Below, in pieces: positions 59-36,195 of a stretch of 64,000 nucleotides of DNA. Both the position numbers and the translations under genes were made by a program. Position 1 is the first letter of the stretch; each line of letters begins with the position of its first letter. Origin of the DNA: Elusimicrobia bacterium CG_4_9_14_3_um_filter_62_55 (GTDB lineage Bacteria > Elusimicrobiota > Elusimicrobia > UBA1565); NCBI GenBank assembly GCA_002790095.1, contig PFUL01000183.1:10287-74286 (forward strand). Reading direction: 5' to 3'. The notes beneath the pieces were generated by a model. The model saw only the letters and a list, made by a program, of their open reading frames with translations. It did no database searches and had not been told where the DNA came from.

Positions 59-3000
59 ATGGAATCCGGCGACAACCTGACGATTTCCTTAAGGGAAGCG
101 TCGGAACCGGGTTCGGTTCGGGTTTTGCTCGACGCCGAATTGATCGAACGCGTGCGCAGCGGCGACCTGCTTTTGATTCGAGACGAAGTGGGCGTGCCCT
201 CCTTGGCCGCGCCGGAAGCGTTGGCGCGCGCGGGGCGTGACTTGGAAGCCGAAGAGGCCTCTGCGCCCGCCGAGGCGCCGGGGGCGCCCGCTGCGGGAGA
301 GTATCAGTACGATCCGAAGGCGGAAGCGGCTCAACTCGCCTCGATGCGCGATGCGGCTCAAGTTTCCTCCGTGAAGCTTTATGACGCGGTCAACGACCGC
401 GTCTACGACGCCTCGCTCGAAAACGATTTAATCGCGAAGGTGGCGCGCGGCGACTTGCGGGTCGCGACGGACGCCGACGGCGTCGTCTACCTGGTGACGC
501 CGGAAGTCCTGGAAGCGTCGCAGCAGCGTGCCGCGCAGGCCGCGGCGGATGCCGAGGCGGAGTCCGCCGCGCAGGCGGCGCCTGATGCGCAGGACGAGAC
601 GCCGGCGGTTGAAGAGAAGTCTCCCGCGATCGAGACGCAGTCTTCCACGGACGAAACGGCCGCGCCCGCCGCGAAGAAAGGGAACAACCCCTCAGGCAAG
701 GCCGGCGCCAACCCCGCGAGTTTTAAGAAGCTCCCCGCCGACGCCCGCGCGATGGACGCCTCCTGGATCCTCGAGGCGAAGAAGGACGCTCAGGCGCGGG
801 CGCGCGCTCAAGCGCCCGACGCGCGCCTGGTCCGCGCCGCAGTGAATCTCGGCGACTCGAACGCGCACTGGTCCTTCATTTTCCATTCCCGGCAGCGCAA
901 CAAGATCATCGTCGTGTGGCCGAAACGGATCGCGGTGCGCAAGGATAAGGCGGCGCTGCGCTGGCCGGTCGGCTACGGCAGCAAGACCGAATTGCGCACA
1001 GCCGACGCCCTTTGGAACACCCGTCTGCGCCGCGTTCGCAGTTTCGAATCGGCCTACACCGCGCTGAAGAAGCAGGCGCATTGGTTCAAGCCGGTGCGCG
1101 TCGAAATCGTCTCAAAGTGGAAGAAGGACCCCATCTTCGCGTTCATCAATGCCAAGGGACGCGTGCTCGAAATCGCGGGTGTCGAAAAGCGCGTCGAAGC
1201 GCCGGCGCAGAAGAAGGAAACGGCTCCTAAGAAGGAAGAGGCGCCCAAGGCGCCGCCCTCCGATACCATCGAGACGCCGCCGGTCGAACCCGACCAGCCG
1301 CCCGCGCAGCCTCCGAAAAGCGGTGACGAGGCCCGCGCCCCGCCCTCGGAGGGCGATCAGGCCAAGGCGCCGCCCGCGGAGTCTCCACCGCCCGGTGCCG
1401 AAGCCTCCTTGGGCTCGCGCTCACGCAATGACGGTCCTCATCTCCATGAGGACTTGTTCGGTTTTAGGAGCGTCCGCGGCCGCAGGCACGGTGAAAAAAT
1501 CGGGCGCCTCCCCTCCGATGCCGATGCCGGCAGAATTATCGAGCAAATAGCCGCACAATTCAACATGACATCGGCTCAGGTGCTCGCGATGGCTTCGCGG
1601 CATCAAATCACCGAGCGTTCGGGACGCGCGGCGTGGTTGGCGGTTTACGATCGCCTGCAAAAGGCGAACCGACAGGAGTTCGTCCAGCTCGACCAGCAAA
1701 AATACCACGGCGGCCTCCTCTCGGAGGCCTTCGGCCATTTTCTGCACCGCGTTGGCCTGAAGAAAAAGGCGCCGAAGGCGCCGGGGTATCGCGAACTCGC
1801 CAATAAGACCTACGCGCCGGGATGGAAGGGCTGGCTGCATCGCGGCGCCGAGATGCACAAGCACGCGGTCGGGTTCCTGATCCGTTTTCCGTATCACCTC
1901 TTCGACATGTTCTTCTTCGGCTACTTCCGAAGGAACATTTCCTACGAGTTCTTCCATTCCACCGAGGATTTCATCACGCTTCGCGACGAGATCGAGTTGA
2001 AGAAAGCCCGCGAGGACGGCAAGCTGACTCCCGAGATGGAGCGGCAGCGCCCCCGCGCGGAGCGCATGCTCGACGGGGCGCTCAAGACGGTGTCGCTCGG
2101 CGGCGTAACGAAGCTCGAACGCCTGCGCGCCAACGCGGCGTACCGCGTTTTCGACCGCTACCTCTGGTCGCCCCTGCTCTCGCCGCTCGGACAGTTCCTC
2201 TACCGCCGGGCGACGCTCGCGATTTTCAGCGCGGCGGCGATGGGACTCGTCGGCGGCTTGCTGCCGCTGCCGGTGATGGCCTTCCACCTTTCCGGAATCC
2301 CGATCCTGGGAGAGGGCTTGATGATGGTCGGACACGGCATTCCGACCGCGGCGGCGAACGTGCCGTTCGTCGGCGATTCTCTCGCGTCGATCACCTCGCA
2401 CGCGATGAACGCCCTGCTCGGCGATTTGACCGTCGGCGCGCTGATCAACACGCTGACGCTTTCCTCGCTGTTGACCTTCCCGCAAGCCGTCCGTCAGCGT
2501 CTGATGGAACTGCGCGGCGACCATCTGTACGTCCCGCCGGTGATGAGCTTCGATTTCATGAAGGGCATGCTCAAGACCCTCTTCACCTGGACTTTCTGGT
2601 CACAGAACCTGAAGAGTTTCGGCGGGCTGCTGCTGGTCGGGGCGGAGATCGAAGGGATCATGACCTATATGGGCGAGGCCGATGCGGCGATCAGCCCCGC
2701 GTTTAAGGCCGCGACCGGACAGGAGTTCCATCTCTTCCACACGATCGGAGCCGCGATCGAACGGCCCGAGGGAGACAGCCCGATTCCCTTCGGCGGGGCG
2801 ATCACTTGGGGCAATATTCTGATCTACAAGCTGCAGGACGCGATCGGCTTCAACCTGTCCGACGCGATCGCCAAGCCGCTGCGCGAGATCTTCTACCAGA
2901 ACGAGGGACCGGACGCGGTTCGGGATGCGCTGCGCTCTTCCAGCCAAAACGCGATGAAGGACAACGGGGTTTCGGTGACCGCCTCGGTCGTCGGTCTCGT

Positions 3001-6000
3001 GAGCCGGGGCGCGATGTCCGAGGCGATGACGGTCGAGCCGGGAACGCCCGAGCAGATGGCGGCCCGGGCCGCAGCCGCGAAGCGCTCGGTCGGCGACATC
3101 GAGCGGGAGATCGCCCAGGTCAAAGAGCGCATCCGTCAGTTGGAGGGGAAGATCGGCGGGGGCGAACGGCGGCTGAAGGAACTCGAGAAGGAGAGTCGCC
3201 CGATTTCCGAGGAAGAGCGCGCCCGCTACGAGGAGACCCTGCGGAGTCTCTCGGCGAAACGCGACGAGGGATACGTCCGTTCCAAGCTCGCCGAAATCAG
3301 CGACATCGAGAACGCCGATGAGGGAACCGCGCGCGTGAAGGCGCTGGCCGATCTTCAGGCCTACTACGCGTCGCTGCTGCCCCAGGACGGCGGCAACGCG
3401 GGGTATCAGGATTCCATCGGCGTGAAGCTCGCCGTGTTTAAAATGGTTCAAGACGCGCTGGCCGACTTCCAAACCGGCCCGAAAGCGAAGCCCGCGCCGC
3501 GCCGAGTCGGAGTGATGGACCAGGAGCGCGCGAAAAAGATCGGACCGCTGGTCGACGAGCTTGAAAAGCTCCGGGCTCAAGCGAAATCGGAGTTGGCGAA
3601 CCGCGACGCGATCGAACGGCTGCTGCGCGCGGTCGAGCAAACGCGCAAGCTCGCGCTTCAGGAGCGGCGCGGCGGCAAGGAGATGCTGGAGTTCCACAAG
3701 AACCTCGCCCGTCTGGCGACGGTGATGGACCTGGCCTTCTCTCTGAATACGATCGAAGCGGCGCAGAAAGCGATCAAGGACATGGAGCACATGCTCGACG
3801 CGAAGCTCGACAAAATCGAGACCCAGCGCCGACAGAGCGAGGCGGATCTTGCCCGCGCCCGCGAGCAGCAAGCGCGCCGCGCGCAGTGGGAGCGCGAGAA
3901 CGCCGACAAGATCAAAGATCACGAAACCTCCAAGGGCGACATGCTCAAGCTTGAGGACCAGACGCGCAAGGCCGTCGAGAACATTCGGGCGTTCCGCACC
4001 GACGTGAGGGCGCTGCTCTCCCGCATCGACGCGGAGGATTCGGGTTCGAGCGGGAGCGCTCTCGCCGAGTACGAACGCCGTTTGGCCCTTCTGCCCGATC
4101 TCCAGCGCTGGGCGCGCGACGGAAACCCCGGCGATCCCGACGCGAACTCGATCAAGAGCCTCAACGAGAAGCTCGTGGACGTCCAGAAATTCCTGGACTC
4201 GGTCGCCGACGGCCTGACGAAGATTCAGCAGGCGCCGGTGGAATTCGCGGGAGTACTCGTCCTTGCGGTCCCGGGTGAGCCGGCATTCAGCGTTTCAAAT
4301 CCCGACACCGCGACCACGCTTCGCCTGCTGGCCGAGCGCAAGGCGCACTGGCAGACCGAACTGGCCGACTATCAGGCCAAGCTGACCGAATTCTCGAATA
4401 GGCTGGACCCATCCTTCAGCGGGACCGAGGCCGACGACTTCGGGGACGTTCATCCGATCTCCTTGCCGAAGCGGCTCGCTGAGGCGCGCGAGGTCGTCTC
4501 CGTCAATCAGGCGGCGGCCGCGGACCTGACCGGACGCATCGACGCCGCGGCGGCGAAGATCCGCGCGGTCGTTCCGGGCGCCGATCTTCCGAACCTTTCG
4601 GGGATGACCCTGGATTCACTGCAGGACGCGGTGGGTGACTACGCCGACAAGCTGAAGGCGGTGACGCTCCCGACCGACGATTCGACCGCCTCGTTCGACG
4701 CGAAGATGGCATTGTTTCAAATCGCCTCGCTTTTGCCGCAGGCCGGGCATGCGGTGATCAAGTGGTCCAAGGGCGACGCCGAAGTCACCGCGATTACCGA
4801 TGCCATGCAGTCCCCGGTACCGCAGGTCAAGGCGCTTTATACGCAGGCGGTCGCCGCGGTGCAGGCGATTATCGACGACGTCGACGCGGACGTCGTTTAC
4901 ATCAATGCCGGCGTGCCGACGCCCGCGGCCAACCAGCAGTTGATCGACCGCAAGACGGCGCTGCTCAACGGCATCCAGCCGACGCTCGCGCAAGCGAAAC
5001 AGGTGATCCAAAGCGACGTCCTTCCCTTCCAACAGGAAAGCGTCGACTCTTATGATCCCAACGGCGATAAGTGGGCGAAGCTGTTCAAGAACCAGAAGAA
5101 GCTCTACGAAGCGACCCGCGACGCGCTGCAAATCACCGTCCCGTGGGCCCTGGCCTCCAACGGCGCGTCGGAAGGCAATACGAGCGGCGCCTTGGCCAAT
5201 ATCGCCGATCAGAACCAGCGCTTCCGAGATCTGCTCGACGGCTACACCGATGAGGACGGGGTTCATACCGGAGTGCTCGAAAATCTCGCGGACATCGCGA
5301 AGCTCAAGGACCCGAACAACACCGAGATGGAGGATGTCTACGGGCAGATGATCCCGGTGTCGCTTCCGCGCCTGATTCAGGTCTTCACCGCAGAGCGCGC
5401 CCAGCGCGCCGGAGAGGTCAACGGGCAGCACGCGGACATCAACAGGATTTTCGCCGACATCGACCGCTTGACGAACAACCGTTTCAACCTCGCAGGCCGG
5501 GCCCTCCCGACCGGGATCACGGCGGGCAGCGACGCGAGCGAGGCGATCGTTCGCCAACTCGTGGACGACAAGGTGTATCAGGATCTGGGAACATTGCTGA
5601 CCGACATCGGCACCGAATACCAGGAACGGGGAGAGGGGTTGACGGATTCCTCGACCAGCGAGGGCGTTCCCTCCGGCGTCCAGCCGACGCCGGACGTCGA
5701 CAACGACACCCGCGTCGCTTTGCTTGCGCTCGAGGCGGCCAAGCGCCTGGTTCCCTCCACCAATCAGAAACCGGAAGACGCCGCGGCGGCCTGGGCCGTC
5801 GCCCGCTACCTCTACAGCGACGCGGTGATCGCGGCCGCGGAGACGAACCTGTACGAGCGCATTCCTTACGCCGAGTCCTTCTTGAACCAGGCCAAAGGCG
5901 CGCTCGAGATTGCGATTTCCGATCTCGACAAGGACAAGACCTATGTGAACTCCACCCAGACCTCCGAGACCCCCGACCAGGTGATGGACCGCAAGATCGC

Positions 6001-9000
6001 GATCTTCTCGGAGCTCAATCAGGTGACCCGCGCGGGGGCCGAGTTCTACGGGGCTCGCATCGATTGGGCCAACGAATCCTTCGAGACGATTGAGGACATG
6101 GAAACCTACTATTCGGCGAGCGGGGACATCCACGACAAGTCTCTCACCGTCGTCGAGAAGGAAATCACCGCGATCAACACGATGAAGGAGTCTCTGAAGA
6201 AGACCTTCGATGAGCTCGAGGACCAGAAAAAGGAACTGGTGCGCTGGATGAACCAGCTCAACCGTCCTGAGGAAAGCGCGCTCAAACGCGTGGGGGAGGA
6301 CCTTCGCAAGATTCAGTTGAAGACCAAGCGCGTGCTCGAAGAAAACATGAAGTTCCGCGATCTGGAGGAACGCTTCGAGCGCTCGGAAGGGGCCCTCGAG
6401 CATACGCTCAAGAGGATCGACGACGTTCAGGGCAAGCTTTCCCGGCAACTGCGCGACCTGCAGGATACGGGCGCGTTGAGCCCCGAGACCCGGCGGCGCA
6501 TCGACGCCTTTAAGATGTCGGGCTCTTCCTGGTTCATGCCGGGCGACACGAAGGACGCGACCTCGGCGCTCGTCATTCCGAAGAAGGACTTCGCGCAGTT
6601 CGTCGAAACGCTGTTCGGCAGTCTGCTCAACCGCACCTCCTCGTCCCGAGACCTCGCCGGTCTGCGGGAGTCTTTGCTCAGCAACCCCGCGGGTCTCGCC
6701 AACGTGATCCCCGGCTCGCAGGTGGTGGACTTCGGCGACGCCGACGGGTTTTATCTGGTGTACCAGAGCCAGTTCTCGGTGCCGCACGGCCTGGAGACCT
6801 CGAGCCTGGTGACGTTGGGCAATGTGGCGAAGATCTGGGGCAACAATGTCAGCGTCTCCGGCTACGTGTTCGCGAGCCCGCCCAACGAGGAGAACGCGCC
6901 TTGGGGCGATAAGGGCGTGAAGGTGCAGATCGAATCCCTGCAGGGCAAGAACTGGGTCAATTATCTGGATGTGGACTTCCATCGCTTCATCCAGAACATT
7001 CCGCCCGACACGCGCATGGCATCGACGGCGCAACAGAGCCGCCTGCTCGTTTTCGAGGACTTCGCGATCATGCTCTTCGGAGACCGGGTCTATATCGCGG
7101 CGACCGGCTTCGGCGACATCGCCACGCATGATGCGGCCAACCAGCCGAAATTCTACGGTGGAAGCCTGAAGACCTCACTGAAATTCACCGAGGTTGTGTT
7201 CCTCGACGCGGAACACCAGGTGATTAAGGCCGATGATCCGCGCTTTTTCGAACAAATTTTCAATCTCGATTTCACCGGGTTGGATTCCGATCTGAACCAG
7301 GACTTCAGGATCCGCTCCGACGCGCAGAATAAGGATTACTCCCGAACTCAGGTCGGACCCCGCATCGACGTCGCGAAACTGATCAACTCGCAGGACGCAT
7401 TTGAAGTGGAGATGTTCTGGGCGCGGCAGCGGGGGACCGACGACTTCAATCAGGACTCCTACGGCGTCAACGTGCTCAAGGGATTTACCCTGCGCGACAA
7501 GGAAGGCAAGCCGTGGGCGGTGATTTCGAATAAGGCCGGCTACGAAAAGGGGGAGAAGTTCAACACCCTCTCCGATCGCGTCAGCGTGCAGTTGCCCGAT
7601 TGGGGCGTCGTCGTGAGCGCCGAAGGCCGTCTGATCGGCGACGCGAAGACCTACTACCTCGAAGCGGCGAAGAAGACCGGCGCGAACACCAGCGCGGCGA
7701 TCGGCTACGGATCGCGCTACGTGGGACAGGAGCCGCGTCTGACGATCTCGATGAATACGTCGTTCACGCTCGGCGAGCTGTGGTCCGCGGTGGCCGACGA
7801 TACGGCCAAGGAATTGACCGGGTCCAAGGCGCTCGAGCCCTACAACAAGGCGATGGACGAGTTTTATAAGGAAGCCGAAAACGACAAACGGGTCGCCGAA
7901 ATGAAGTCCGTCTTCATGCGCGACGTGGGCTCGAAGCTCGTCACGCAGGACATCGGCAAGCTGGTCAAGGACATTCAAGACCTTCGCAAGGCCGGCGCCT
8001 TCCTCGACAACACGCGGGTGCGCGCGACGGTCGGCTTCGTCACCCGCCCGATCGGAGAGTCTCTGGCCGATCGGGCCGTCGGCGGGGGATTCACCGCGGG
8101 TACCTACACGTCCATGGAGCTGTCGAAGACCCAGAAGGCGCTGATCGATTCGAAGATGTCGAGCCTCTACCGCGAGTCGCTTCGCCTGCAGTTCAGGATG
8201 CTGGAACTGACGAAGGATTGGCAGGAAACCGTCACCGAGATCGCCCAATCGCAATGGGACGTGAAAATGGGCGCCACCATGAAGGAGCACGCGCCCACGG
8301 AGACTTTGCGCGCCGAAGGCGCGGCGAAGCTGCGCGAGGCCGAACTGCGGTTGAACCAGGCGACGATTCGCTACAACATGCTCTCCGGGCGCGATCCGGC
8401 GGACGCGCTTCCGTTCGGCGATTTGAAGGCCTCCGACCTCGAGGCTTTGCTCAAGGAGATCCGCTCGCTGATCCAGACCCCGGATTCGCTGCAAAAGGTC
8501 CTTCACGAGTTGGATCCGGAAGTCGTTCGCTCCGTGATGGGGGACAACCCGTTCAATTTGATGGACTGGGTGCCGTGGGTTGAGAAGTTCACCGTCTCCT
8601 TCGGCGCGCAGCTCCAGGACTACATGGCTAATCAGGTGTTGGGCATCGGAACGAATTTCCGCCTGCCCTTCTACGATCCGGCGTCGAAGGAGCGCGACAA
8701 GGCGTACGCGTTGGAATCCCAAGCGACGCTTTCGGAAATCCTTTCGGTATACGACGAGTACGCGCTCGCCTCGCAGAAGAGGCTTCTGGAAGCCCGCTCG
8801 TGGGACGACGGTGCCCGGACGCTGCGGGGCGAAGCCGTCGCCTCCGCGAATCGGCTCTCAGACGCGATCCGGGGCTATCGCAACGGGCTGATCTCCGAAA
8901 GCCGCTTGCGCGAGGCGTTCGGCCAGTGGCATTGGTACATGCAGGGCTTGCTCGAAGCCGAGGCGAAAGCGTCGCTGAGCGCCGGCTGGGCGAATCTCGA

Positions 9001-12000
9001 CGCGTCGTTCGGCCGGACCACGCGCGAAACCGGTCCCGCGCCGCGTTTGGGTTCGTTCCAGGAGGCGTTCGACGCGGTCGCCCGTTCCGCCCGGGGGCTT
9101 GAGGAGATCGCCGCGCGCCGCCAGGCCGCCGCGCATATGACCGAGGCGAACAACCACCGGATCCAGAAATTTTACGTCGACCTTTTCATCGGCTACAACC
9201 TGACCGCCGACGGGGTGGGCTGGCTCCCGTCGATGGGCATCACGGGAATTCCCGTGACCCCCGTGCTGACCTTCGAACTCAAGCCCGCGGAGCTCAGGGA
9301 GCTTCAGGTGAAGCAGGGAGAAGGGAAAACGAAGTACTACGAACAGTTTAAGATGAAGCTGGAATCGGATCTCGCCGTCGATTTCTTCAAAGGATTGGTT
9401 TCCTACACGCAGGCGCGCGACGCCGCGGCGCTGCTGGAGCGCGAGATTCTTCCGGAACTTCGCGCCGCGGAGGCCGCCGCGCGCTCTCGGGCGCGTCCGG
9501 GCGATCCGGAAGGGTTGGTCGCGAAGGCGCGCCGCGAACTCGACACGGCCCAACGCAAGCTTCATCTCTCCATCCAAGTCCGCGAGCAGGCCCGCGCTGC
9601 GCTCAACCATCTGTTGGGACGCGATCCGAAGTCTCCGCTCGACCCGGCGATGGACACCGGCCGGGCGCTGGCCGACCTGAAGCAGATTCTGGAGGACAAG
9701 CATCCCTCGTCGGTGGACCGCAAGGTTCTCGCTTCGCGCGTGGAGATCGCGCGATCCGTTGAGACGATGGTCGACAAGAATTTGAAAATGGAAAATCTCC
9801 GCTTTGAGCCCGTGTCGTTGGCGGTTCGTTCGCTCTCCCGGCTGATTTCCGCGCTGGGCGACGAAACGATCGGAAATCCGGACCTCGTCGCAGCAGCCCG
9901 GATTCAGACGCTCGAGGCCGAGCGGGCGCTGGAATCCTACGACCGGGAATTGCCTGTACGCCGCGCCCAGATCGACGCCCAGTTGTCGACGGTGGAATCC
10001 GCTTTGGCGGAGCTCTCCGGAAAACCCGACGCGCAAAGCCGCTTGAAGGTTCTCGAACTGCGCGGGCAAAAGATGATGTTCGAGGCGGCGTTGGCGCGCT
10101 TGGACGCGCGGCCCGACCGTTCCCGGGGTTCTTCCGCGCTGCCGAGCAGCTACAACGAATTGTTCCAGCGTCTCGCGGGGGCGGAGCAGCGCCTCGCCTC
10201 CTCGGGAAAAAATCCCGAAGTCCGCGTGTTCGAACCGGAGACGCACGAGCCCCTCTCGGAAATGAACCTCCGATTCTACAAATCCCGCCTCGATCTCGGG
10301 GGAGATCCGCTTCCGGGCAACTACATCGAGAGCTGGATCACGTTCCGTTTGAAGAGCATGTCCACTCCCTCTGAAGTTCTTTTGGCTCTTTCGCAGCTGC
10401 GAACGGCGAAGGCGGAACGGATTCACATCAACGAGCAGGCCGCGGCGCGTTCGCGGGCGCAGATTCTGCTCTCCGAGTTTGAAATGAACGTCCGCCTGCT
10501 GCGCTGGAGCGACGCGATCGACGGCTCGGGCTCTTCGAACGCCGACCAGGACCGTTTCGAGCGGGAGATCCGCGCGCGTCTGGAGTCGCAGGCCGGACGG
10601 ATCAAGGCGCTGTTGAACCTGCCGGCCTCCTCGACCCTCGCGGATCTCATGCGCCTGATTCCCGCCGACGAGGCGGGCCGGTCGGGTGATTTGCGCGCCA
10701 TCGCGGAGCGCTTCGTCGACGACGCGAACCGGCTGCAGCTCGAGCAGCTGCGAAAGACTTTGTTCGAAGGCGGCATCCCGTCCTCCTTCGGCAACGAAGA
10801 CGGATTGATGGAGCAGATCCGCGCGGACGTCATCGCGGAACGCATGAGCTACAAGGGCTTCACGCCGACGATCGCTTTCGGTCTGTTCCGCAATTCGCGC
10901 GTGGACGGCGTATTCATGGAAGCGCCGGACCCCCGCTCCATTGAACGCTCCCTGCAGAGCGTGCTCTCGGATTCCGTCCGCAAGGAGCTGCAGTCCCAGG
11001 GGCGCATGCAGGAACTCGCGCTGCGGCTTCACCTCCTGATGAGTTCGGTCGCGGGGAACGCGAAGCTCGTCGAGGCGCAAAGCGCCCGCGTCGTCTCCGC
11101 CCAACGAGACTTTCGCGCGACGCTCGCCCGCTTCCCGGCCGGGCATCCTGAGACGGCCTCGGCCCAGGACGCGATGGTCCGCGCGCGGCTCGAATTGACC
11201 GACAGCGCGGCGAAACTTAAGAACGATTTCATCGAACTGGTCTCGGAACTGCAGGCGGTGGGCTATGATACGGAAAAGCTGTTGAGCGTTCCGGCCCGCG
11301 ACTTCGAACTGCGCGGCGAGGATCTCGCGACGAATCCGGTGGACGCCCTGGTGGACTACGCGTCGAGGCGCTCGCTTCAGCCCGAATTCGTCGACAGGTT
11401 CCTCGGCCTGGGCTTCGGTACCGCCGAGCAGCGGGCGGCGCTAAAATCCTACGCGGACGAATACCGGACGATGGAATACGACGCGATGCTCGTACGGCAT
11501 CATCCCGGGATCGGCGCGAAGGAACGCCTTGAGCTGCTGACGAAGGCCGACGTCGAGGGCCGCCGCCAGAGCGTCGAACGGGCGTTCCGGACGATTTTGG
11601 CGGATTCCTACGGAAACGCCGCCGCGCGAGAGAAGGTTTTCGGCTACCTGCTTGCCGACGTCGCAACCCGCGCGGAGGAAACCGGCGGCGTGCAGGAGAA
11701 GGAGTGGGCGGCCATCCGCCGCATCGGACGGGAAATCGTTCGAGATCTTCCGCACGCGGCCAAGGGCGCCTATCAGCGCCTCGAGACGCTGCGCGGCGAA
11801 ATGCTGCAAACCCGCCAATCGCTGATGGAAGACTACCTGCGCCATAAGCGAGGCCCCACCGAATTTGTGATGCGCGACATCGCACTCGACGCCTACCTGA
11901 AGGCCGTGTCGAATTACGACGCGGAAGTCATCAAGGTCTTCGGCCAAGCGGAGATCAAGGCGGACGCCCACGCGGCTCGGGTGCTGAACTCCCTGTTCCG

Positions 12001-15000
12001 TCTGGGCGCGTCGCTCGAGCGTCAAAAGGCGCTGGCGAGCCACGGCCGCGGGATGCTGGCTCTCGACGCGCTCATCAAGATGCAGAACGCGCGGTTGGCC
12101 GCCGCGGCGTGGGAACGCGCGGCTCCCGAGCAGACCCGGGCGATCACGCTGGCGTTGACGCAATTGACCGATCTGCGGGCGAAGTGGATGGCGAAGAACC
12201 CCGAAGGGTTGATTCCGCTCTACGCGGTGACGACCGTGGACGCCGAGGGACGGCGGTTGTGGAGCGTGGACGATTGGCTGACCGGCGGGGAACTCCAGTC
12301 TTTGCTTGATTCCAAGCGGGTCGAGACCGACGCCGAGGGCCGGATGTGGCTGAAACCGGGCCCCGGTGAAACGGGCAAGCGCGAAATCGTGGGCGGCGTC
12401 GACGCGGCGCTGATGGAACGTAACATCCTCAAGGAAGCGCGGGACTACAACGCCGAGCGGGCGAACCTGCACCGCGTGTTCTCGGAATCGGAGTTCGCCG
12501 TGGTGTCGCTCGACGGCCGGCGTGCGGAAGGAATCTCCTACCGGGACGCGATGGCCGTCGCGGCGCGGGGCAACGCCTTCAACTTCGCTCGAATCAAGGA
12601 CGGCTACGGGTTGCATTCCGCCGAGCATCCCTTGAAGGCGCTCTGGGACGACCCGAACGGAACGGTGATGATCCTTTACCGCGGCGAGGAAAATTACTCG
12701 CGCGACCGTTTCCCCACGCTCGAGAGTCTCCAGGATCATATCCGCCGGTTGAACGCGGACGGGAACGCGGAGGAAGCCGCGAAGTTCGTTCGCCTCGAAG
12801 CGGGTCCGAAGGGCGTCGCGAAGATGATCGAATTCGCGACCGAGTTCCAGGCCCGGTCCCGCACGATGGGTTGGACGGCGATGAAGCTGCAGACCTACGG
12901 TTTCGCCGCGGACCCGACCGGACGACCGGCGGAATCCTTCCTGACTCTGCAGGAGTTCGAGGCGTTTAAGACCGCGTTGGAAGGCTCGCAGGAAGCGTTC
13001 GCCCGCACCCGCGCCGACGCGATTCGCGCGAAGGCGATGGAGCGCGCCGGGGCCGAGCGACGCTTCGCCGAGAAGACGAAGCTCGACGACGAATTGGCCC
13101 GCTTTAACGCCCTCGAGCGCGAGGTGCGTGAGCGGGTTTCCGACGCTGTTCGGTCCTCGACCCCGCGCCGCGAGGGAGAAGGGGAAAAGGCGTACGCGCA
13201 CCGCTTGAAGGCCGCGATGGACGACGCGCTGATCCGCGAGTCCGACTATAAGGCGGCCCAAAAGCGGCATGGGACGGCGCTGGAGGCCTTCAATAAGATC
13301 GACGAGGACTACAAGGAACGCGACCGCGGCGCCGACAACGCCATCCGGGAATTCAAAAACGCCGCCGTCATCGCCGCGAAAGCGGGTCACCGGGAGCGCT
13401 ACGCCGCCGACTACGCGAAGACGCTGGAGCATTTGGGAATCGCGGGCGACGACCTGGAAATCGCGCTCGAGGCCTATGCGAAAACACAAGCCCGCCGTCT
13501 CTTCGTGACGCGCGACGCGGCGCTTTACATCGACGCATCGAACCGATTGACCCGCGTGACGGCCGACCCCGTTTACGGATCGGGCGTGCTGGATCAGAGC
13601 GTGCGCGCGGCCGAGGGTCCGGTGCGGGTCGCGAAGGGCGAGTTGTTCGGCGCGGTTTTGGACCGCGACGGGACCTTCGTCACCCTCTACTACGATCCGA
13701 AGGCGATGGACACCGCGGCGAAAGGCTGGTCTTTGCGCGACGTGCACGAGACCGGCGCCGAGAAGGTCGTCTACACCAACGGGGCGAGCACCGTCGATCC
13801 GAATTTCCGCCTGAAGCACTACTCCGCGACTTTCGAAGGGGAGCAGGGTCCCGTCGACCTCCCGGTGATGCTCAACCGGCGGTATCTGATTTCCCGCGTT
13901 GCGGGGGCGGGCAAGGAGCTTTCGCGCAACGACGGATGGGCGTACGGTCCGTGGAACTGGGGCAATATCGTCATGGAAATCCCCCGGGGCGTTCTCGGGA
14001 CGCCGATGGAATTGCTGACCGGACGCGACGTCAATCAGCACAACTACCTGGGCCGCGTCCAGATGCATAAGATCGAGGGCGGAGCGACGAATCATCACAA
14101 TTTCTTCCGGCGCGCGCTCGGGGCGCTCGACGTGCTCGATCTGATGCCCGATCCTGTGGATTGGTATTTCGATCCCAGCCAATTCCCCGAACGGGTGACG
14201 CTGGACCGCGAGCTCCAGCCCGGCCGGAACATCTTCGATGCGGACGCGCGGGCGGGAAAGAAGGACATTCATTTCGGACGGACTTCCATCCAGCGCACGA
14301 TCGTCTACAACACCGAGGATCTGCTCAATGCCAACCGCCGCGTCCGCTCCTACTTCGAGGGGGGCCTGAGCGACAGCCTGATCGAAGAGCGCAGCGGCCG
14401 CGCCGTCGATCCCGCGACCGGCCTGGCGAAGCGCTACTACACCTCGACGGTCAACGAGCGCGTCGGCCTCGCAGAGCTCGAAAAGGCGCTGCGCGACCGG
14501 GCCATCGGCTTCGACAACGGCTCCTATTTGCCCGACGGCGAGGTGCGCCTGGCGGAACTGCCGCGCCATCTGGCCGTCGACATGGTGGAACGCCGCGTAA
14601 AGATTCGCCCCGGCGCCGAGCAGTACGAGGAGATCGCGAAGGAATTGGGCCGCCTGCCGGAACTGCTCGAGGCGCAGCGCGCCGCGACCGCGGCCCGCCG
14701 CGACGGACTCGAAAAGGCCGCCGAGAAGGCCGAGTCCCGTTTGGCGGAACTGATCGCGGAATTGATCAAGAGCCGCGAAGAAGAGAGCGCCCTCTGGGAT
14801 GAGGCGCACCGATTGATTTGGCGCATCGGAAAACAGGAAGCGCTGGAAGCGGAGATGAAGGAAATCCGCGCGAATCTTGAGCGCTGGCGCGCGGAACTCG
14901 ACCAGTTGCGCCGCCGCCTCGCGGAACTAGAGGACGAACTCCGCCGCGAACGGGACCGGAAGCCGGGCGACGATCCGTCGAACCCAGGGCAGCGCTTCCC

Positions 15001-15109
15001 GTGGTGGCCCTGGGTGATCGCCTCTTTCGGAATTTGGGCGCTGATCGCCGCACTTTGGGAGTGGCTGCGCCGTCGCCGCGCCGGTTCCGGCCTAGGCCTT
15101 CCGGCCTAG
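59..15109 (+). CDS. Giant envelope protein (at least 5016 aa). In order: N-terminal repeat modules, Pro-rich spacer, polytopic hydrophobic cluster, long coiled coils, beta-rich region, TolC/OEP-like repeats, C-terminal tail-anchor helix.
   Basis: Uninterrupted 15,051-nt ORF. Balanced K/E/D/L-rich composition, whereas the other frames give Arg/Gly/Pro-rich junk. The frame stays open back to nt 2, so the true start may lie upstream of the window. ATG at 59 is preceded by AAGGGG (50-55), and a different frame closes with TAA at 48-50. Confidence 0.9.
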   Translation: MESGDNLTISLREASEPGSVRVLLDAELIERVRSGDLLLIRDEVGVPSLAAPEALARAGRDLEAEEASAPAEAPGAPAAGEYQYDPKAEAAQLASMRDAAQVSSVKLYDAVNDRVYDASLENDLIAKVARGDLRVATDADGVVYLVTPEVLEASQQRAAQAAADAEAESAAQAAPDAQDETPAVEEKSPAIETQSSTDETAAPAAKKGNNPSGKAGANPASFKKLPADARAMDASWILEAKKDAQARARAQAPDARLVRAAVNLGDSNAHWSFIFHSRQRNKIIVVWPKRIAVRKDKAALRWPVGYGSKTELRTADALWNTRLRRVRSFESAYTALKKQAHWFKPVRVEIVSKWKKDPIFAFINAKGRVLEIAGVEKRVEAPAQKKETAPKKEEAPKAPPSDTIETPPVEPDQPPAQPPKSGDEARAPPSEGDQAKAPPAESPPPGAEASLGSRSRNDGPHLHEDLFGFRSVRGRRHGEKIGRLPSDADAGRIIEQIAAQFNMTSAQVLAMASRHQITERSGRAAWLAVYDRLQKANRQEFVQLDQQKYHGGLLSEAFGHFLHRVGLKKKAPKAPGYRELANKTYAPGWKGWLHRGAEMHKHAVGFLIRFPYHLFDMFFFGYFRRNISYEFFHSTEDFITLRDEIELKKAREDGKLTPEMERQRPRAERMLDGALKTVSLGGVTKLERLRANAAYRVFDRYLWSPLLSPLGQFLYRRATLAIFSAAAMGLVGGLLPLPVMAFHLSGIPILGEGLMMVGHGIPTAAANVPFVGDSLASITSHAMNALLGDLTVGALINTLTLSSLLTFPQAVRQRLMELRGDHLYVPPVMSFDFMKGMLKTLFTWTFWSQNLKSFGGLLLVGAEIEGIMTYMGEADAAISPAFKAATGQEFHLFHTIGAAIERPEGDSPIPFGGAITWGNILIYKLQDAIGFNLSDAIAKPLREIFYQNEGPDAVRDALRSSSQNAMKDNGVSVTASVVGLVSRGAMSEAMTVEPGTPEQMAARAAAAKRSVGDIEREIAQVKERIRQLEGKIGGGERRLKELEKESRPISEEERARYEETLRSLSAKRDEGYVRSKLAEISDIENADEGTARVKALADLQAYYASLLPQDGGNAGYQDSIGVKLAVFKMVQDALADFQTGPKAKPAPRRVGVMDQERAKKIGPLVDELEKLRAQAKSELANRDAIERLLRAVEQTRKLALQERRGGKEMLEFHKNLARLATVMDLAFSLNTIEAAQKAIKDMEHMLDAKLDKIETQRRQSEADLARAREQQARRAQWERENADKIKDHETSKGDMLKLEDQTRKAVENIRAFRTDVRALLSRIDAEDSGSSGSALAEYERRLALLPDLQRWARDGNPGDPDANSIKSLNEKLVDVQKFLDSVADGLTKIQQAPVEFAGVLVLAVPGEPAFSVSNPDTATTLRLLAERKAHWQTELADYQAKLTEFSNRLDPSFSGTEADDFGDVHPISLPKRLAEAREVVSVNQAAAADLTGRIDAAAAKIRAVVPGADLPNLSGMTLDSLQDAVGDYADKLKAVTLPTDDSTASFDAKMALFQIASLLPQAGHAVIKWSKGDAEVTAITDAMQSPVPQVKALYTQAVAAVQAIIDDVDADVVYINAGVPTPAANQQLIDRKTALLNGIQPTLAQAKQVIQSDVLPFQQESVDSYDPNGDKWAKLFKNQKKLYEATRDALQITVPWALASNGASEGNTSGALANIADQNQRFRDLLDGYTDEDGVHTGVLENLADIAKLKDPNNTEMEDVYGQMIPVSLPRLIQVFTAERAQRAGEVNGQHADINRIFADIDRLTNNRFNLAGRALPTGITAGSDASEAIVRQLVDDKVYQDLGTLLTDIGTEYQERGEGLTDSSTSEGVPSGVQPTPDVDNDTRVALLALEAAKRLVPSTNQKPEDAAAAWAVARYLYSDAVIAAAETNLYERIPYAESFLNQAKGALEIAISDLDKDKTYVNSTQTSETPDQVMDRKIAIFSELNQVTRAGAEFYGARIDWANESFETIEDMETYYSASGDIHDKSLTVVEKEITAINTMKESLKKTFDELEDQKKELVRWMNQLNRPEESALKRVGEDLRKIQLKTKRVLEENMKFRDLEERFERSEGALEHTLKRIDDVQGKLSRQLRDLQDTGALSPETRRRIDAFKMSGSSWFMPGDTKDATSALVIPKKDFAQFVETLFGSLLNRTSSSRDLAGLRESLLSNPAGLANVIPGSQVVDFGDADGFYLVYQSQFSVPHGLETSSLVTLGNVAKIWGNNVSVSGYVFASPPNEENAPWGDKGVKVQIESLQGKNWVNYLDVDFHRFIQNIPPDTRMASTAQQSRLLVFEDFAIMLFGDRVYIAATGFGDIATHDAANQPKFYGGSLKTSLKFTEVVFLDAEHQVIKADDPRFFEQIFNLDFTGLDSDLNQDFRIRSDAQNKDYSRTQVGPRIDVAKLINSQDAFEVEMFWARQRGTDDFNQDSYGVNVLKGFTLRDKEGKPWAVISNKAGYEKGEKFNTLSDRVSVQLPDWGVVVSAEGRLIGDAKTYYLEAAKKTGANTSAAIGYGSRYVGQEPRLTISMNTSFTLGELWSAVADDTAKELTGSKALEPYNKAMDEFYKEAENDKRVAEMKSVFMRDVGSKLVTQDIGKLVKDIQDLRKAGAFLDNTRVRATVGFVTRPIGESLADRAVGGGFTAGTYTSMELSKTQKALIDSKMSSLYRESLRLQFRMLELTKDWQETVTEIAQSQWDVKMGATMKEHAPTETLRAEGAAKLREAELRLNQATIRYNMLSGRDPADALPFGDLKASDLEALLKEIRSLIQTPDSLQKVLHELDPEVVRSVMGDNPFNLMDWVPWVEKFTVSFGAQLQDYMANQVLGIGTNFRLPFYDPASKERDKAYALESQATLSEILSVYDEYALASQKRLLEARSWDDGARTLRGEAVASANRLSDAIRGYRNGLISESRLREAFGQWHWYMQGLLEAEAKASLSAGWANLDASFGRTTRETGPAPRLGSFQEAFDAVARSARGLEEIAARRQAAAHMTEANNHRIQKFYVDLFIGYNLTADGVGWLPSMGITGIPVTPVLTFELKPAELRELQVKQGEGKTKYYEQFKMKLESDLAVDFFKGLVSYTQARDAAALLEREILPELRAAEAAARSRARPGDPEGLVAKARRELDTAQRKLHLSIQVREQARAALNHLLGRDPKSPLDPAMDTGRALADLKQILEDKHPSSVDRKVLASRVEIARSVETMVDKNLKMENLRFEPVSLAVRSLSRLISALGDETIGNPDLVAAARIQTLEAERALESYDRELPVRRAQIDAQLSTVESALAELSGKPDAQSRLKVLELRGQKMMFEAALARLDARPDRSRGSSALPSSYNELFQRLAGAEQRLASSGKNPEVRVFEPETHEPLSEMNLRFYKSRLDLGGDPLPGNYIESWITFRLKSMSTPSEVLLALSQLRTAKAERIHINEQAAARSRAQILLSEFEMNVRLLRWSDAIDGSGSSNADQDRFEREIRARLESQAGRIKALLNLPASSTLADLMRLIPADEAGRSGDLRAIAERFVDDANRLQLEQLRKTLFEGGIPSSFGNEDGLMEQIRADVIAERMSYKGFTPTIAFGLFRNSRVDGVFMEAPDPRSIERSLQSVLSDSVRKELQSQGRMQELALRLHLLMSSVAGNAKLVEAQSARVVSAQRDFRATLARFPAGHPETASAQDAMVRARLELTDSAAKLKNDFIELVSELQAVGYDTEKLLSVPARDFELRGEDLATNPVDALVDYASRRSLQPEFVDRFLGLGFGTAEQRAALKSYADEYRTMEYDAMLVRHHPGIGAKERLELLTKADVEGRRQSVERAFRTILADSYGNAAAREKVFGYLLADVATRAEETGGVQEKEWAAIRRIGREIVRDLPHAAKGAYQRLETLRGEMLQTRQSLMEDYLRHKRGPTEFVMRDIALDAYLKAVSNYDAEVIKVFGQAEIKADAHAARVLNSLFRLGASLERQKALASHGRGMLALDALIKMQNARLAAAAWERAAPEQTRAITLALTQLTDLRAKWMAKNPEGLIPLYAVTTVDAEGRRLWSVDDWLTGGELQSLLDSKRVETDAEGRMWLKPGPGETGKREIVGGVDAALMERNILKEARDYNAERANLHRVFSESEFAVVSLDGRRAEGISYRDAMAVAARGNAFNFARIKDGYGLHSAEHPLKALWDDPNGTVMILYRGEENYSRDRFPTLESLQDHIRRLNADGNAEEAAKFVRLEAGPKGVAKMIEFATEFQARSRTMGWTAMKLQTYGFAADPTGRPAESFLTLQEFEAFKTALEGSQEAFARTRADAIRAKAMERAGAERRFAEKTKLDDELARFNALEREVRERVSDAVRSSTPRREGEGEKAYAHRLKAAMDDALIRESDYKAAQKRHGTALEAFNKIDEDYKERDRGADNAIREFKNAAVIAAKAGHRERYAADYAKTLEHLGIAGDDLEIALEAYAKTQARRLFVTRDAALYIDASNRLTRVTADPVYGSGVLDQSVRAAEGPVRVAKGELFGAVLDRDGTFVTLYYDPKAMDTAAKGWSLRDVHETGAEKVVYTNGASTVDPNFRLKHYSATFEGEQGPVDLPVMLNRRYLISRVAGAGKELSRNDGWAYGPWNWGNIVMEIPRGVLGTPMELLTGRDVNQHNYLGRVQMHKIEGGATNHHNFFRRALGALDVLDLMPDPVDWYFDPSQFPERVTLDRELQPGRNIFDADARAGKKDIHFGRTSIQRTIVYNTEDLLNANRRVRSYFEGGLSDSLIEERSGRAVDPATGLAKRYYTSTVNERVGLAELEKALRDRAIGFDNGSYLPDGEVRLAELPRHLAVDMVERRVKIRPGAEQYEEIAKELGRLPELLEAQRAATAARRDGLEKAAEKAESRLAELIAELIKSREEESALWDEAHRLIWRIGKQEALEAEMKEIRANLERWRAELDQLRRRLAELEDELRRERDRKPGDDPSNPGQRFPWWPWVIASFGIWALIAALWEWLRRRRAGSGLGLPA
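1870..2680 (+). other. Hydrophobic (probable multi-pass membrane) cluster inside giant protein 1
   Basis: Segments GFLIRFPYHLFDMFFFGYF, LAIFSAAAMGLVGGLLPLPVMAFHLSGIPILGEGLMMVGHGI, LLGDLTVGALINTLTLSSLLTF and FGGLLLVGAEIEGIMTYMG. Coordinates approximate. Confidence 0.6.
6850..7790 (+). other. Beta-rich region of giant protein 1 with an outer-membrane beta-strand-like alternating pattern
   Basis: Loss of heptad/coiled-coil character; aromatic and Gly-rich alternating stretches such as AAIGYGSRYVGQEPRLTISMNTSFTL and FEVEMFWARQRG. Judged by eye only. Confidence 0.35.
8100..10110 (+). other. TolC/outer-membrane-efflux-protein (OEP)-like repeats embedded in giant protein 1
   Basis: Two units with the strand-strand-long-helix pattern of TolC. 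Unit 1: FTVSFGAQL...LGIGTNFRLPFYDPASKE, then ...AIRGYRNGLISESRLREAFGQWHWYMQGLLEAEAKASLSAGWANLDASFG. Unit 2: KFYVDLFIGYNL...PVLTFEL, then ...QVREQARAALNHLLGRDPKSPLD. Turn motifs YNMLSGRDP and NHLLGRDP resemble the LARLLG turns of OEP proteins. Boundaries approximate. Confidence 0.55.
14996..15067 (+). other. C-terminal transmembrane tail anchor of giant protein 1
   Basis: FPWWPWVIASFGIWALIAALWEWL followed by RRRRAGSG. Preceded by about 100 aa of E/R/L-rich coiled coil. Confidence 0.7.
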
Positions 15110-15169: not shown

Positions 15170-15745
15170 ATGAAAAAATCTACCGTGAACCTTGTGTTGA
15201 TTCCGATCTTCCTGATTGCGAGCGGCTCGGCGGTCTTCGGGCACGGCTCGGGCCGCCAGGCGCCTCCCAACTGGCGGGATCGCGATTTTCACGATCAGAT
15301 CGTCCAACAGGAGATCCGCCGCGCCTCCCGTCCGGGCTACTACGCGGACGGCTCAGATGACGCGGCGAAGGACGGCAGCGGCAAGGGCTTCGACGCTTAT
15401 ACGCCCCGGGAAGCCGATGCGGTTCCCGGTTCCGAGAGCAAGCCGACGGCCTCGCTCGACGGGGCGGCGGTCGAGGAGAAGGGCCTTCCCGCGAAGAACG
15501 TCCCGGATCCGAAGGCGAAGTCCTCCGAAAAAGAGGGAAAGGGATTTCTCGCGAAAACCGGCGACGCCGTCGGCGGGTTTTTTAAGGGCACCTGGGAGTT
15601 CCTCAAGGCCAAGAAAATGATGGTCGGCGGCGCTGCGGCGGGCGCGATTATCGGCGGCCTGTTCGGCGGTCCTTTGGGCTTGGTCATGGGTTTGTTCATC
15701 GGCGGCTTCGGCGGCTGGTGGGTCGGCGACGGCCTGGGAGTTTAA
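15170..15745 (+). CDS. Small secreted or membrane protein with a C-terminal glycine-zipper helix
   Basis: ATG with GAGAG 5 nt upstream. N-terminal signal peptide MKKSTVNLVLIPIFLIASGSAVFG. C-terminus GGAAAGAIIGGLFGGPLGLVMGLFIGGFGGWWVG. Lies 60 nt after giant gene 1 on the same strand. Confidence 0.75.
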   Translation: MKKSTVNLVLIPIFLIASGSAVFGHGSGRQAPPNWRDRDFHDQIVQQEIRRASRPGYYADGSDDAAKDGSGKGFDAYTPREADAVPGSESKPTASLDGAAVEEKGLPAKNVPDPKAKSSEKEGKGFLAKTGDAVGGFFKGTWEFLKAKKMMVGGAAAGAIIGGLFGGPLGLVMGLFIGGFGGWWVGDGLGV

Positions 15746-21116: not shown

Positions 21117-21133
21117 AAAGTCGTTTCCTTTCC

Positions 21134-21162
21134 TTGACAAGCCGTCAGCCGGGGTCTATCCT
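21134..21162 (+). promoter_or_regulatory. Sigma70-like promoter candidate for the histidine kinase gene (TTGACA-17-TATCCT)
   Basis: TTGACA at 21134-21139 and TATCCT at 21157-21162. The caveat is that the -10 ends only 3 nt before the AAGGAG RBS (21166-21171), so the predicted transcription start (5-9 nt past the -10) would fall at or within the Shine-Dalgarno sequence. Confidence 0.35.
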
Positions 21163-21178
21163 TCGAAGGAGTGACTTC

Positions 21179-23353: not shown

Positions 23354-23366
23354 CGCCCGGAGGGAC

Positions 23367-26528: not shown

Positions 26529-26992
26529 GAGGCCTCCACGGTGCGAAGCGACACGTCGCGTCCGTTGACCGACTCTTTTTCGGAGACGCCGGGATCGAGC
26601 GTCCATTTTCCGTCAACGGTAAATCCGTACCGGTATTGACCCGGAGGCAGAGGGAGAACCAGGCGCCAGGCGCCCCGTTCCTGCTGCAGGGGGTAGCCGT
26701 CGCCGCGCCAGCCGTTGAAATCCCCGGCGACCTTAACCGACTGAGCGTCCGGGGCTGTCAATGTGAATTCCACGAATTCGATGTCGGGCAAATCCGCGTC
26801 GTCTAGGGAATCCGTATGAGGAACATAGTCGACGCCCATCTTTTTCAGGACGCCCGGCTCCCATCCGGTCAGAAATCGATAATATTGCGTGCCTTTTTCC
26901 AAAAAGACGAGCGACGGGACCGCGGCGAAGAGAACCACGATCACCGCCAGGCCCCAGAACGCGAGGCGTTCACGCGTCGAGACGTCTCCCAT
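26525..26992 (-). CDS. Membrane-anchored CBM48 / AMPK-beta-type glycogen-binding module protein
   Basis: ATG with AAGAGGGGAAG upstream. TM anchor LAFWGLAVIVVLFAAVPSLVF. CBM48 pattern VEFTLTAPDAQSVKVAGDFNGWRGDGYPLQQERGAWRLVLPLPPGQYRYGFTVDGKWTLDP. Confidence 0.85.
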   Translation of the reverse strand: MGDVSTRERLAFWGLAVIVVLFAAVPSLVFLEKGTQYYRFLTGWEPGVLKKMGVDYVPHTDSLDDADLPDIEFVEFTLTAPDAQSVKVAGDFNGWRGDGYPLQQERGAWRLVLPLPPGQYRYGFTVDGKWTLDPGVSEKESVNGRDVSLRTVEAS

Positions 26993-30369: not shown

Positions 30370-30519
30370 CCGCTCGTTCCTCCCTCAAAGCTGCGGGTGC
30401 CTGGGGCGCGAAGTCGCGGCCTGATCGAGGAGGAATCAAAATTTAGGCCCAATGGCGCCTCGCGCCGTCCCATCCTGCCCAGGTTTTGATCCCAGTTGGG
30501 TGCTATGCTCGGAGCAACG

Positions 30520-36130: not shown

Positions 36131-36195
36131 GGGTATAGGGGACCTGGGCCGATTTGGACTGGCCGCATCAGGACTTCGGGGCTATATATGAGGTA

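Follow-up and report, generated by a model that had tools for sequence, protein, structure and literature searches.

Can a duct of the TolC type be built into the interior of a far larger protein chain, and to which membranes would such a chain be attached? This question is raised by a 64,000-nucleotide stretch of the genome of Elusimicrobia bacterium CG_4_9_14_3_um_filter_62_55 (assembly GCA_002790095.1, contig PFUL01000183.1, positions 10,287 to 74,286), hereafter the window, which has a G+C content of 64% and opens with a giant open reading frame (ORF) of 5,016 amino acids (aa) on the forward strand (59..15109, +). The protein belongs to a family restricted to the Elusimicrobiota, a phylum known mainly from metagenomes. 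Ducts of the TolC type have been described as trimers of a stand-alone protein, docked onto adaptors and pumps that are encoded by genes of their own. A first-pass annotation of the window, made from the sequence alone, had described two repeats of TolC grammar in the middle of the giant protein, with a beta-rich region ahead of them and membrane anchors near both ends of the chain, and had assumed a trimer by analogy. The analysis reported here supported the presence of TolC/OEP-type repeats embedded in a giant protein with anchors at both ends, and placed the assumed trimer in doubt.

Predicted fold of the central region

The eight peptides that had been quoted as TolC-like were all found at the residues given for them: YNMLSGRDP starts at aa 2772, FTVSFGAQL at aa 2844, LGIGTNFRLPFYD at aa 2861, RGYRNGLISESRLREAF at aa 2938, LSAGWANLDASFG at aa 2973, KFYVDLFIGYNL at aa 3037, PVLTFEL at aa 3068 and NHLLGRDPKSPLD at aa 3183. 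The region was modelled twice with AlphaFold2 (AF2). Model 1 covered aa 2680-3420 (8 sequences, predicted local distance difference test score, pLDDT, of 60), and model 2 covered aa 2215-3414 (23 sequences, pLDDT 69.6, predicted template modelling score, pTM, of 0.57). The quoted peptides were modelled as beta-hairpins, each leading into a long descending helix and then a shorter, ascending one.

In model 1, a strand pair with helices of 68 and 36 aa was followed by a second strand pair with helices of 69 and 36 aa, and partial units of the same kind were present on either side. Model 2 reproduced this pattern and contained four units, named R0 to R3, over aa 2600-3360. In the numbering of that model, R1 consisted of strands E629-639 and E644-658 and helices H662-727 (66 aa) and H733-768 (36 aa), and R2 of strands E821-835 and E852-860 and helices H863-930 (68 aa) and H939-971 (33 aa). 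The topology and helix lengths expected of TolC repeats were thus recovered in both models, while the count of two repeats was too low, with four in model 2 and two more proposed from the sequence.

When the predicted structures were compared by Foldseek with the Protein Data Bank (PDB), the top 39-44 places were all occupied by members of the TolC family (SilC, ST50, TolC, CusC, OprM, OprN, VceC, CmeC, MtrE and TOprJ), with E-values of 1e-5 to 1e-3, a probability of 1.00 and target-normalised template modelling (TM) scores of 0.45-0.66. With model 1, 44 TolC-family chains came first (best E-value 1.7e-5, 370-400 columns) and the next class, helices of ABC transporters, appeared at E>0.28. With model 2, the best E-value was 1e-5, most of the top matches extended over 410-440 columns, and the next class had E-values of at least 0.01.

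Sequence similarity to outer-membrane factors

The sequence relation was analyzed with hhalign, using a 37-sequence alignment of the giant family on one side and, on the other, an outer-membrane factor (OMF) profile of 11 sequences, namely TolC and CusC of E. coli and nine plasmid outer-membrane-factor genes. R2 (aa 2999-3191) was aligned with the entire OMF repeat 1 (TolC 24-213) over 173 columns, with an E-value of 8e-5 and a probability of 61%. R1 (aa 2863-2953) was aligned with OMF repeat 2 (TolC 306-397) at E-values of 7.5e-4 to 1.8e-3, and its LPFYDP motif fell onto LPIYQGG of TolC. A marginal similarity to OMF repeat 2 (E-value 0.012, score 23.6) was obtained for a further unit, R5, in register all the way from its pre-helix to the closing L..ALG motif. 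Within the giant protein, R0 matched R2 over 152 columns with an E-value of 4.5e-5.

The scores against the OMF profiles were 40 for R2, 31 for R1 and 24 for R5, as compared with at most 21.2 for reversed profiles and at most 25.2 for six unrelated giant stretches. All pairs other than R0/R2 in the comparison of the repeats with one another were rejected, being within a noise level at which reversed-profile controls reached about 28 and self-reversed ones 35. The alignments to single TolC or CusC sequences by hhalign were not significant, and their best local matches fell at analogous motifs. Considered together with the predicted fold, these similarities make it very likely that the TolC-like module is real and homologous to the TolC/OEP family. 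The module probably works like the channels of this family, to which it would be distantly related.

Number, lengths and phase of the repeats

Four repeats were delimited with the AF2 models, and all of the repeats lie on the forward strand. R0 (aa 2600-2785, 7856..8413, +) comprised a pre-helix (aa 2610-2646), a hairpin (aa 2652-2689) and helices of 54 and 29 aa with YNMLSGRDP at the end, and may be assigned to the OEP-repeat-1 type by way of its similarity to R2. R1 (aa 2786-2990, 8414..9028, +), which is OEP-repeat-2-like, had short equatorial-like helices ahead of its hairpin (aa 2843-2872), closed the hairpin with an invariant RLPxYDP and continued with helices of 66 and 36 aa that end in LDASFG. 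R2 (aa 2991-3195, 9029..9643, +), which is OEP-repeat-1-like, consisted of a pre-helix, a hairpin (aa 3035-3074) and helices of 68 and 33 aa with the end NHLLGRDP. R3 (aa 3196-3360, 9644..10138, +) had a pre-helix, a degenerate hairpin region (EPVSLAVRSLSRL...GNPD) and helices of 46 and 23 aa.

Two more repeats are proposed from the grammar of the family consensus, with which the output of a crude predictor of secondary structure agreed (Q3 0.67 in its calibration on the AF2 model). R4 (aa 3361-3530, 10139..10648, +) would have a putative hairpin at aa 3400-3433 and helices of about 48 and 24 aa with the end ALLNLP. R5 (aa 3531-3745, 10649..11293, +), which is OEP-repeat-2-like, would have a putative hairpin from aa 3600-3622 to EAPDP and helices of about 67 and 37 aa with the end LVSELQAVGYD. 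The module first described was therefore a real region that runs past the end assigned to it, as far as aa ~3745 (nt ~11293), if R4 and R5 are true repeats, as their grammar suggests. A hydrophobic-moment scan for amphipathic strands was also tried as a way of counting hairpins and was rejected for its insufficient specificity.

As to the comparison of homologs that had been proposed in the first-pass annotation, the lengths of hairpins and helix blocks were identical or nearly so in 37 relatives, which share only 32-60% identity. The hairpins of R1, R4 and R5 measured 30, 34 and 23 aa in 37/37 relatives, the helix block of R0 was 88 aa long in all 37, and that of R1 was 112-113 aa. The helical hairpin of R2 ranged from 84 to 113 aa across the family, with the long form in the window protein, and the other blocks were nearly fixed. 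Some relatives lacked 12 residues corresponding to positions 9500-9535 of the window (aa ~3148-3159; alignment columns 486-497).

Three features pointed to the phase of the repeats. When whole profiles were compared, the best-matching OMF half alternated 1,2,1,2,1,2 along R0-R5, an alternation in which only R1, R2, R5 and, via R2, R0 carry statistical weight. The repeats R0, R2 and R4 end with L(S/L/N)(G/L)(R)xP, like the first repeats of OMFs, and R1, R3 and R5 end like OMF C-termini. In addition, the junctions R1-R2 (aa 2986-2999) and R3-R4 (aa 3351-3361) are short, unconserved coils rich in Gly, Pro and Ser, while those within pairs are long and conserved and resemble the equatorial segment of OMFs. 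Hence, the six repeats appear to be phased as (R0,R1)(R2,R3)(R4,R5), which would correspond to three OEP subunit-equivalents. The TolC trimer has twelve strands and twelve tunnel helices, the number that six repeats give, and a single-chain pseudo-trimer is put forward tentatively on these grounds.

A canonical-style homotrimer would offer another arrangement. In that case only R1 and R2 (aa ~2786-3195) would be inserted in the membrane, three giant chains would contribute four strands each, and R0 and R3-R5 would be accessory helical hairpins sheathing or extending the tunnel, as periplasmic adaptor proteins do. R1 and R2 are indeed the only repeats that combine a significant OEP profile similarity with the full helix lengths of TolC, the Foldseek alignments span roughly one subunit (370-440 columns), and to our knowledge all solved members of the TolC family are trimers. 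Nevertheless, AF2 gave R0 as a full repeat, hairpin included, R0 is homologous to R2, and R5 has full-length helices and an in-register alignment to OEP repeat 2. The phase obtained with hhalign pairs R0 with R1 and R2 with R3, and not R1 with R2, between which the unconserved linker falls; moreover, one complete duct needs exactly six repeats. The homotrimer was consequently judged unlikely.

The beta domain and the environment of the hairpins

The beta-rich region that had been noticed ahead of the repeats was predicted in model 2 as an unbroken run of about 20 antiparallel strands, each 7-15 residues long (aa 2232-2570, 6752..7768, +), with a pLDDT mostly between 65 and 83 per 10-residue block. 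This beta domain is the most conserved stretch of the giant protein, and the hydrophobicity of its strands alternates in the family alignment. After the TolC family, Foldseek ranked barrels of 22-26 strands (PfeA, PiuD, FhuA, MtrB and LptD) with E-values of 0.01-0.03 and TM scores of only 0.21-0.32. No match to plug, TonB box or LptD/OstA domains was found in the beta domain with Pfam or NCBIfam.

It was also considered that the giant might be a soluble helical scaffold of the periplasm or cytoplasm, a coiled-coil strut or spacer with the inner membrane as its sole anchor, whose hairpins would lie outside any membrane and whose likeness to TolC would be convergent or an artefact of AF2 and Foldseek. 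The lack of a match to a curated OEP profile, a mean pLDDT of just 60-70, the lack of Pfam and PDB sequence matches in the rest of the protein and the lack of pump partners nearby would all suit such a scaffold. On the other hand, the Foldseek matches were exclusively to the TolC family, other helical proteins following only after a clear gap, and the LPxYDP motif between strand and helix aligns with LPIYQGG of TolC. The hairpin strands have sharply alternating faces in the family alignment, of +2.4 to +3.1 against -1.1 to -2.1 (+3.1/-2.1 in R1), and a meander of 20 strands resembling outer-membrane barrels lies immediately upstream. A soluble scaffold is improbable in view of these features.

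A composite barrel of 22-32 strands, in which the 20-strand domain, together with all or part of the hairpins, would form a new barrel class above TolC-type helical hairpins, is a very improbable solution: the alignments to PfeA, FhuA, MtrB and LptD do span 560-625 columns, beyond the 340 aa of the beta domain, and only one helical excursion separates this domain from the hairpin of R0, but those column counts include gaps, the TM scores are only 0.21-0.32, and R0 is homologous to R2, itself OEP-repeat-1-like.

The giant protein family

A protein search with aa 2264-3500 returned eight matches, all of them 'hypothetical proteins' of Elusimicrobiota that are colinear fragments of the same giant. 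A profile of aa 2680-3420 was then compared with 1.84 billion proteins in an exhaustive hidden Markov model (HMM) search and retrieved 64 cluster representatives, all of which were members of the giant family or fragments of them. A scan of one genome per species yielded 47 loci of the family, with 34-75% identity, all from Elusimicrobiota or unclassified metagenome-assembled genomes (MAGs). The family members are proteins of 3,300-5,940 aa; an ORF of more than 3,000 aa was present in 29 of the 47 loci (maximum 5,644 aa), and these ORFs were colinear with the window protein over aa ~460-5005. The conservation of a colinear family in 47 species-level genomes, together with segment lengths fixed to the residue, indicated a strong structural constraint and not an artefact of annotation.

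The family comprises two types of paralogs, a long one, to which the window protein belongs, and a short one of about 3,840 aa (P0150, P0154 and P0155; loci L033, L034 and L048). Both types were found in some MAGs (paired loci L005/L035, L004/L037 and L011/L042). In the complete 3.8-Mb Elusimicrobiota genome CP096137.1 (L001/L012), the giant gene was represented by five consecutive ORFs on the same strand, of 853, 917, 703, 1,113 and 1,619 aa, a form that could be due to frameshifts from sequencing errors, to a pseudogene or to a genuinely split gene.

Outside the repeats, the giant protein matched neither a Pfam family nor a PDB sequence. Its C-terminal arm contains a conserved region rich in Trp, Gly and Pro (aa ~4560-4780, 13736..14398, +), with a conservation peak at aa 4601-4700, for which no known domain was detected in the Pfam and PDB sequence searches. 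Neither a Walker A motif nor a lipobox was found in the giant protein, and Pfam scans did not detect an SLH domain in it. The literature searched, on giant proteins or TolC in Elusimicrobiota and on fused TolC-like proteins, yielded no account of this family or of a TolC module that is both internal and multiplied.

Predicted membrane anchors and topology

The conserved hydrophobic stretches of the giant protein are confined to aa 713-808, aa 4981-5003 and a weaker one in the hairpin loop of R2 (aa 3052-3070), in agreement with the membrane cluster and the tail anchor of the first-pass annotation. In the family-averaged hydropathy, the N-terminal cluster (aa 713-808, 2195..2482, +) is preceded by FLYRR and probably forms about three transmembrane (TM) helices, a count and topology read from the sequence. 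The C-terminal hydrophobic helix (aa 4981-5003, 14999..15067, +), which was present in 19 aligned family members, is followed by RRRRAG and would act as a tail anchor with its positive residues inside. Since positive residues would lie on the cytoplasmic side of both the first and the last hydrophobic helix, the simplest topology would be N-in/C-in, and about 4,170 aa would form a loop in the periplasm.

In P0150, P0154 and P0155, the short paralogs, the chain opens with a classical signal peptide (for example, ...LAAAVALSIAGPWPALA/SD) and aligns with the window protein from aa ~1059 onward, which indicated that this part of the chain is exported in those paralogs. They lack the first ~1,050 aa, and with them the TM cluster, as well as the C-terminal TM helix. 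Furthermore, the 5,016 aa of the window protein include no Cys, and this residue made up 0.033% of 29 relatives (43/130,475 residues), compared with 0.4-1.3% in the cytoplasmic enzymes of the window. A near-total absence of Cys fits an extracytoplasmic protein. A chain in contact with both membranes agrees with hydrophobic segments restricted to the ends, with short paralogs that carry signal peptides and with the scarcity of Cys, and such contact was considered somewhat more probable than its absence.

A proposed single-chain duct and the evidence against it

The explanation that best accounts for these results, with a probability of about 45%, is that the giant contains an internal module derived from TolC and forms, as a single chain, a duct tied to the inner membrane. 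According to this proposal, aa ~2232-3745 would form an outer-membrane module of TolC/OEP-derived fold, made of the ~20-strand beta domain and then six tandem units. Each unit would begin with a beta-hairpin and continue with two helices, the descending one long and the ascending one shorter, and the pairs of units would be joined by the unconserved Gly/Pro/Ser linkers. The twelve strands and the twelve tunnel helices, which three subunits contribute in TolC, would all belong to one chain. In the periplasm, two arms that are largely helical (aa ~810-2230 and ~3750-4980) would tie the duct to the inner membrane, where about three TM helices would anchor the N-terminal side and a single tail anchor the C-terminus, and the outcome would be a trans-envelope rivet or conduit made of a single chain. 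Closure of the hairpins into one barrel, its insertion in the outer membrane and any transport function would follow from the same proposal. It is conceivable, though less likely than not, that a self-folding duct of 12 strands and 12 helices would stand beside a 20-strand barrel in a chain anchored to the inner membrane at both ends, and that no separate adaptor or outer-membrane factor would be needed.

Several results weighed against this explanation. As to sequence, the profile check that had been recommended for OEP (PF02321) gave no match at E<=1, in Pfam or NCBIfam, with four overlapping pieces of the giant, which returned only sub-threshold coiled-coil noise; ten full-length relatives had no Pfam family at E<=0.01. 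One phmmer search and two family profile searches matched nothing among the PDB sequences, and no canonical OEP of ~450 aa was among the 64 matches of the exhaustive HMM search. By curated sequence criteria, the giant module is not a member of PF02321. The first-pass annotation had named a missing profile match together with missing barrel strands as the outcome that would refute its reading; the profile match was indeed missing, whereas hairpin strands were predicted. The HH probabilities were just 42-69%, and R3 and R4 showed no significant similarity by hhalign.

As to structure, the hairpin region of R3 was predicted poorly, as a single short strand of low pLDDT, although its sequence is conserved, and R4 and R5 are outside the modelled range, which ends at aa 3414-3420. 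The helix blocks of R0-R5 are uneven (88, 112, 101-113, 76, 86 and 114 aa), so that a regular tunnel of 12 helices is not guaranteed, and several strands of the beta domain have weakly hydrophobic faces. The flanking genes that were examined included none for a transporter, an adaptor or an ATPase, and the giant has no Walker A motif of its own. Finally, we know of no assembly route for an internal barrel within a doubly anchored chain.

If the proposal of a single-chain duct were true, the TolC fold could be built as a single-chain pseudo-trimer, which would represent a natural experiment on barrel assembly. It would also pose a problem of biogenesis, namely by which route a barrel within an inner-membrane protein anchored at both ends gets to the outer membrane and is inserted there. 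The Elusimicrobiota would then possess a phylum-specific, single-chain conduit or rivet spanning the envelope, with an outer-membrane barrel internal to an inner-membrane protein, and the giant would be a candidate for what holds or connects the two membranes in this phylum.

Genomic neighbourhood

Directly downstream of the giant gene lies an ORF of 191 aa (15170-15745, +) with a signal peptide and a C-terminal hydrophobic segment resembling a glycine zipper (GGAAAGAIIGGLFGGPLGLVMGLFIGGFGGWWVG); it had no Pfam match, and no homolog was detected in the related loci by tblastn. About 6 kb downstream of the giant gene, a dCache-HAMP-PAS histidine kinase (21008-23353, +) and a LysM-FecR-Glucodextran_B protein (23214-24734, +) are encoded. 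Homologs with 39-64% identity were also found downstream of the giant in other members of the family, those of the kinase in nine related loci, those of the LysM-FecR protein in seven (loci sharing this neighbourhood: L006, L013-L015, L020, L021, L024 and L001/L012).

Two glycan-related genes are located between the giant ORFs of the window: one for a protein with an SLH-like C-terminal module of glucodextranase (24747-26606, -), and one for a fusion of DUF1861 with a putative glucoamylase domain (30496-33141, +). Further downstream, two other giant ORFs are arranged back to back. The first, of 3,276 aa (36154-45984, +), has no match other than a short helicase-like one (DEAD/ResIII) at aa 1475-1546, and the second, of 2,371 aa (46102-53217, +), has a start resembling a signal peptide; both are unrelated to the family of the 5,016-aa giant. 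The other neighbours in the window were glycan enzymes and proteins of unknown function. Among the flanking ORFs of four related loci, half (5/10) matched Pfam, as an epimerase, an aminotransferase, a tRNA methyltransferase, a HEAT-repeat protein and an IS200-type transposase, and the other half (5/10) had no Pfam match. With TolC and CusC as queries, no canonical OEP gene was found by tblastn in the window or in the related loci.

Comparison with known systems

The closest counterparts of the giant module are TolC, OprM and CusC (PF02321). They share with the AF2 models the beta-hairpin, the descending helix of ~67 aa and the ascending helix of ~35 aa, and the predicted fold of the giant resembles every solved member of their family. 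A weak profile similarity, in register, extends to the strand end LPxY(D/Q) and to the helix ends L..LLG and L..ALG. Unlike these stand-alone proteins of ~450-500 aa, the giant has its module inside a chain of 5,016 aa, 2,600 aa away from the N-terminus, with six tandem repeats in place of two and with half of its helical hairpins shorter. The giant also lacks a lipobox and a signal peptide of its own, and no adaptor or transporter genes were found among its examined flanking genes.

Other proteins are comparable in the way they bridge the envelope. The OmpM/SlpA-type tethers and Omp-alpha of Thermotoga combine an outer-membrane barrel with a long helical stalk in the periplasm, by which the spacing of the envelope layers is set; they are trimers of chains of ~400-1,100 aa, with SLH domains that bind peptidoglycan and porin-type barrels. 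The giant differs from them in having no SLH match and in carrying TolC-type repeats in place of a porin-type barrel. VirB10/TrbI of type IV secretion is anchored in the inner membrane while its C-terminal part lines the outer-membrane pore, so that one chain bridges the envelope. The segment of VirB10 in the outer membrane is alpha-helical, an antenna within a 14-mer, and the protein, of ~400 aa and part of a multi-protein machine, has no TolC-like repeat, in contrast to the giant. Dma1 is a small regulator with a single inner-membrane helix and a C-terminal barrel, whereas the giant would be anchored at both ends, with an internal module of the outer-membrane type and no regulatory domain. 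The likeness of the giant to VirB10 and Dma1 would be one of topology, as it has no sequence relation to either. Dma1 has nonetheless set a precedent for a single chain that spans both membranes (PMC10927553), which indicates that a dual-membrane topology of one chain can be assembled.

A precedent for the fusion of a TolC-like module to extra regions is provided by Bucl8 of Burkholderia, a TolC-like channel with a collagen-like C-terminal extension whose architecture has been called unique (PMC8277102). In Bucl8, which is linked to efflux genes, the canonical TolC-like portion is N-terminal and is followed by the collagen-like and tail regions, whereas in the giant the module is internal and multiplied, and is flanked by predicted periplasmic arms with anchors in the inner membrane.

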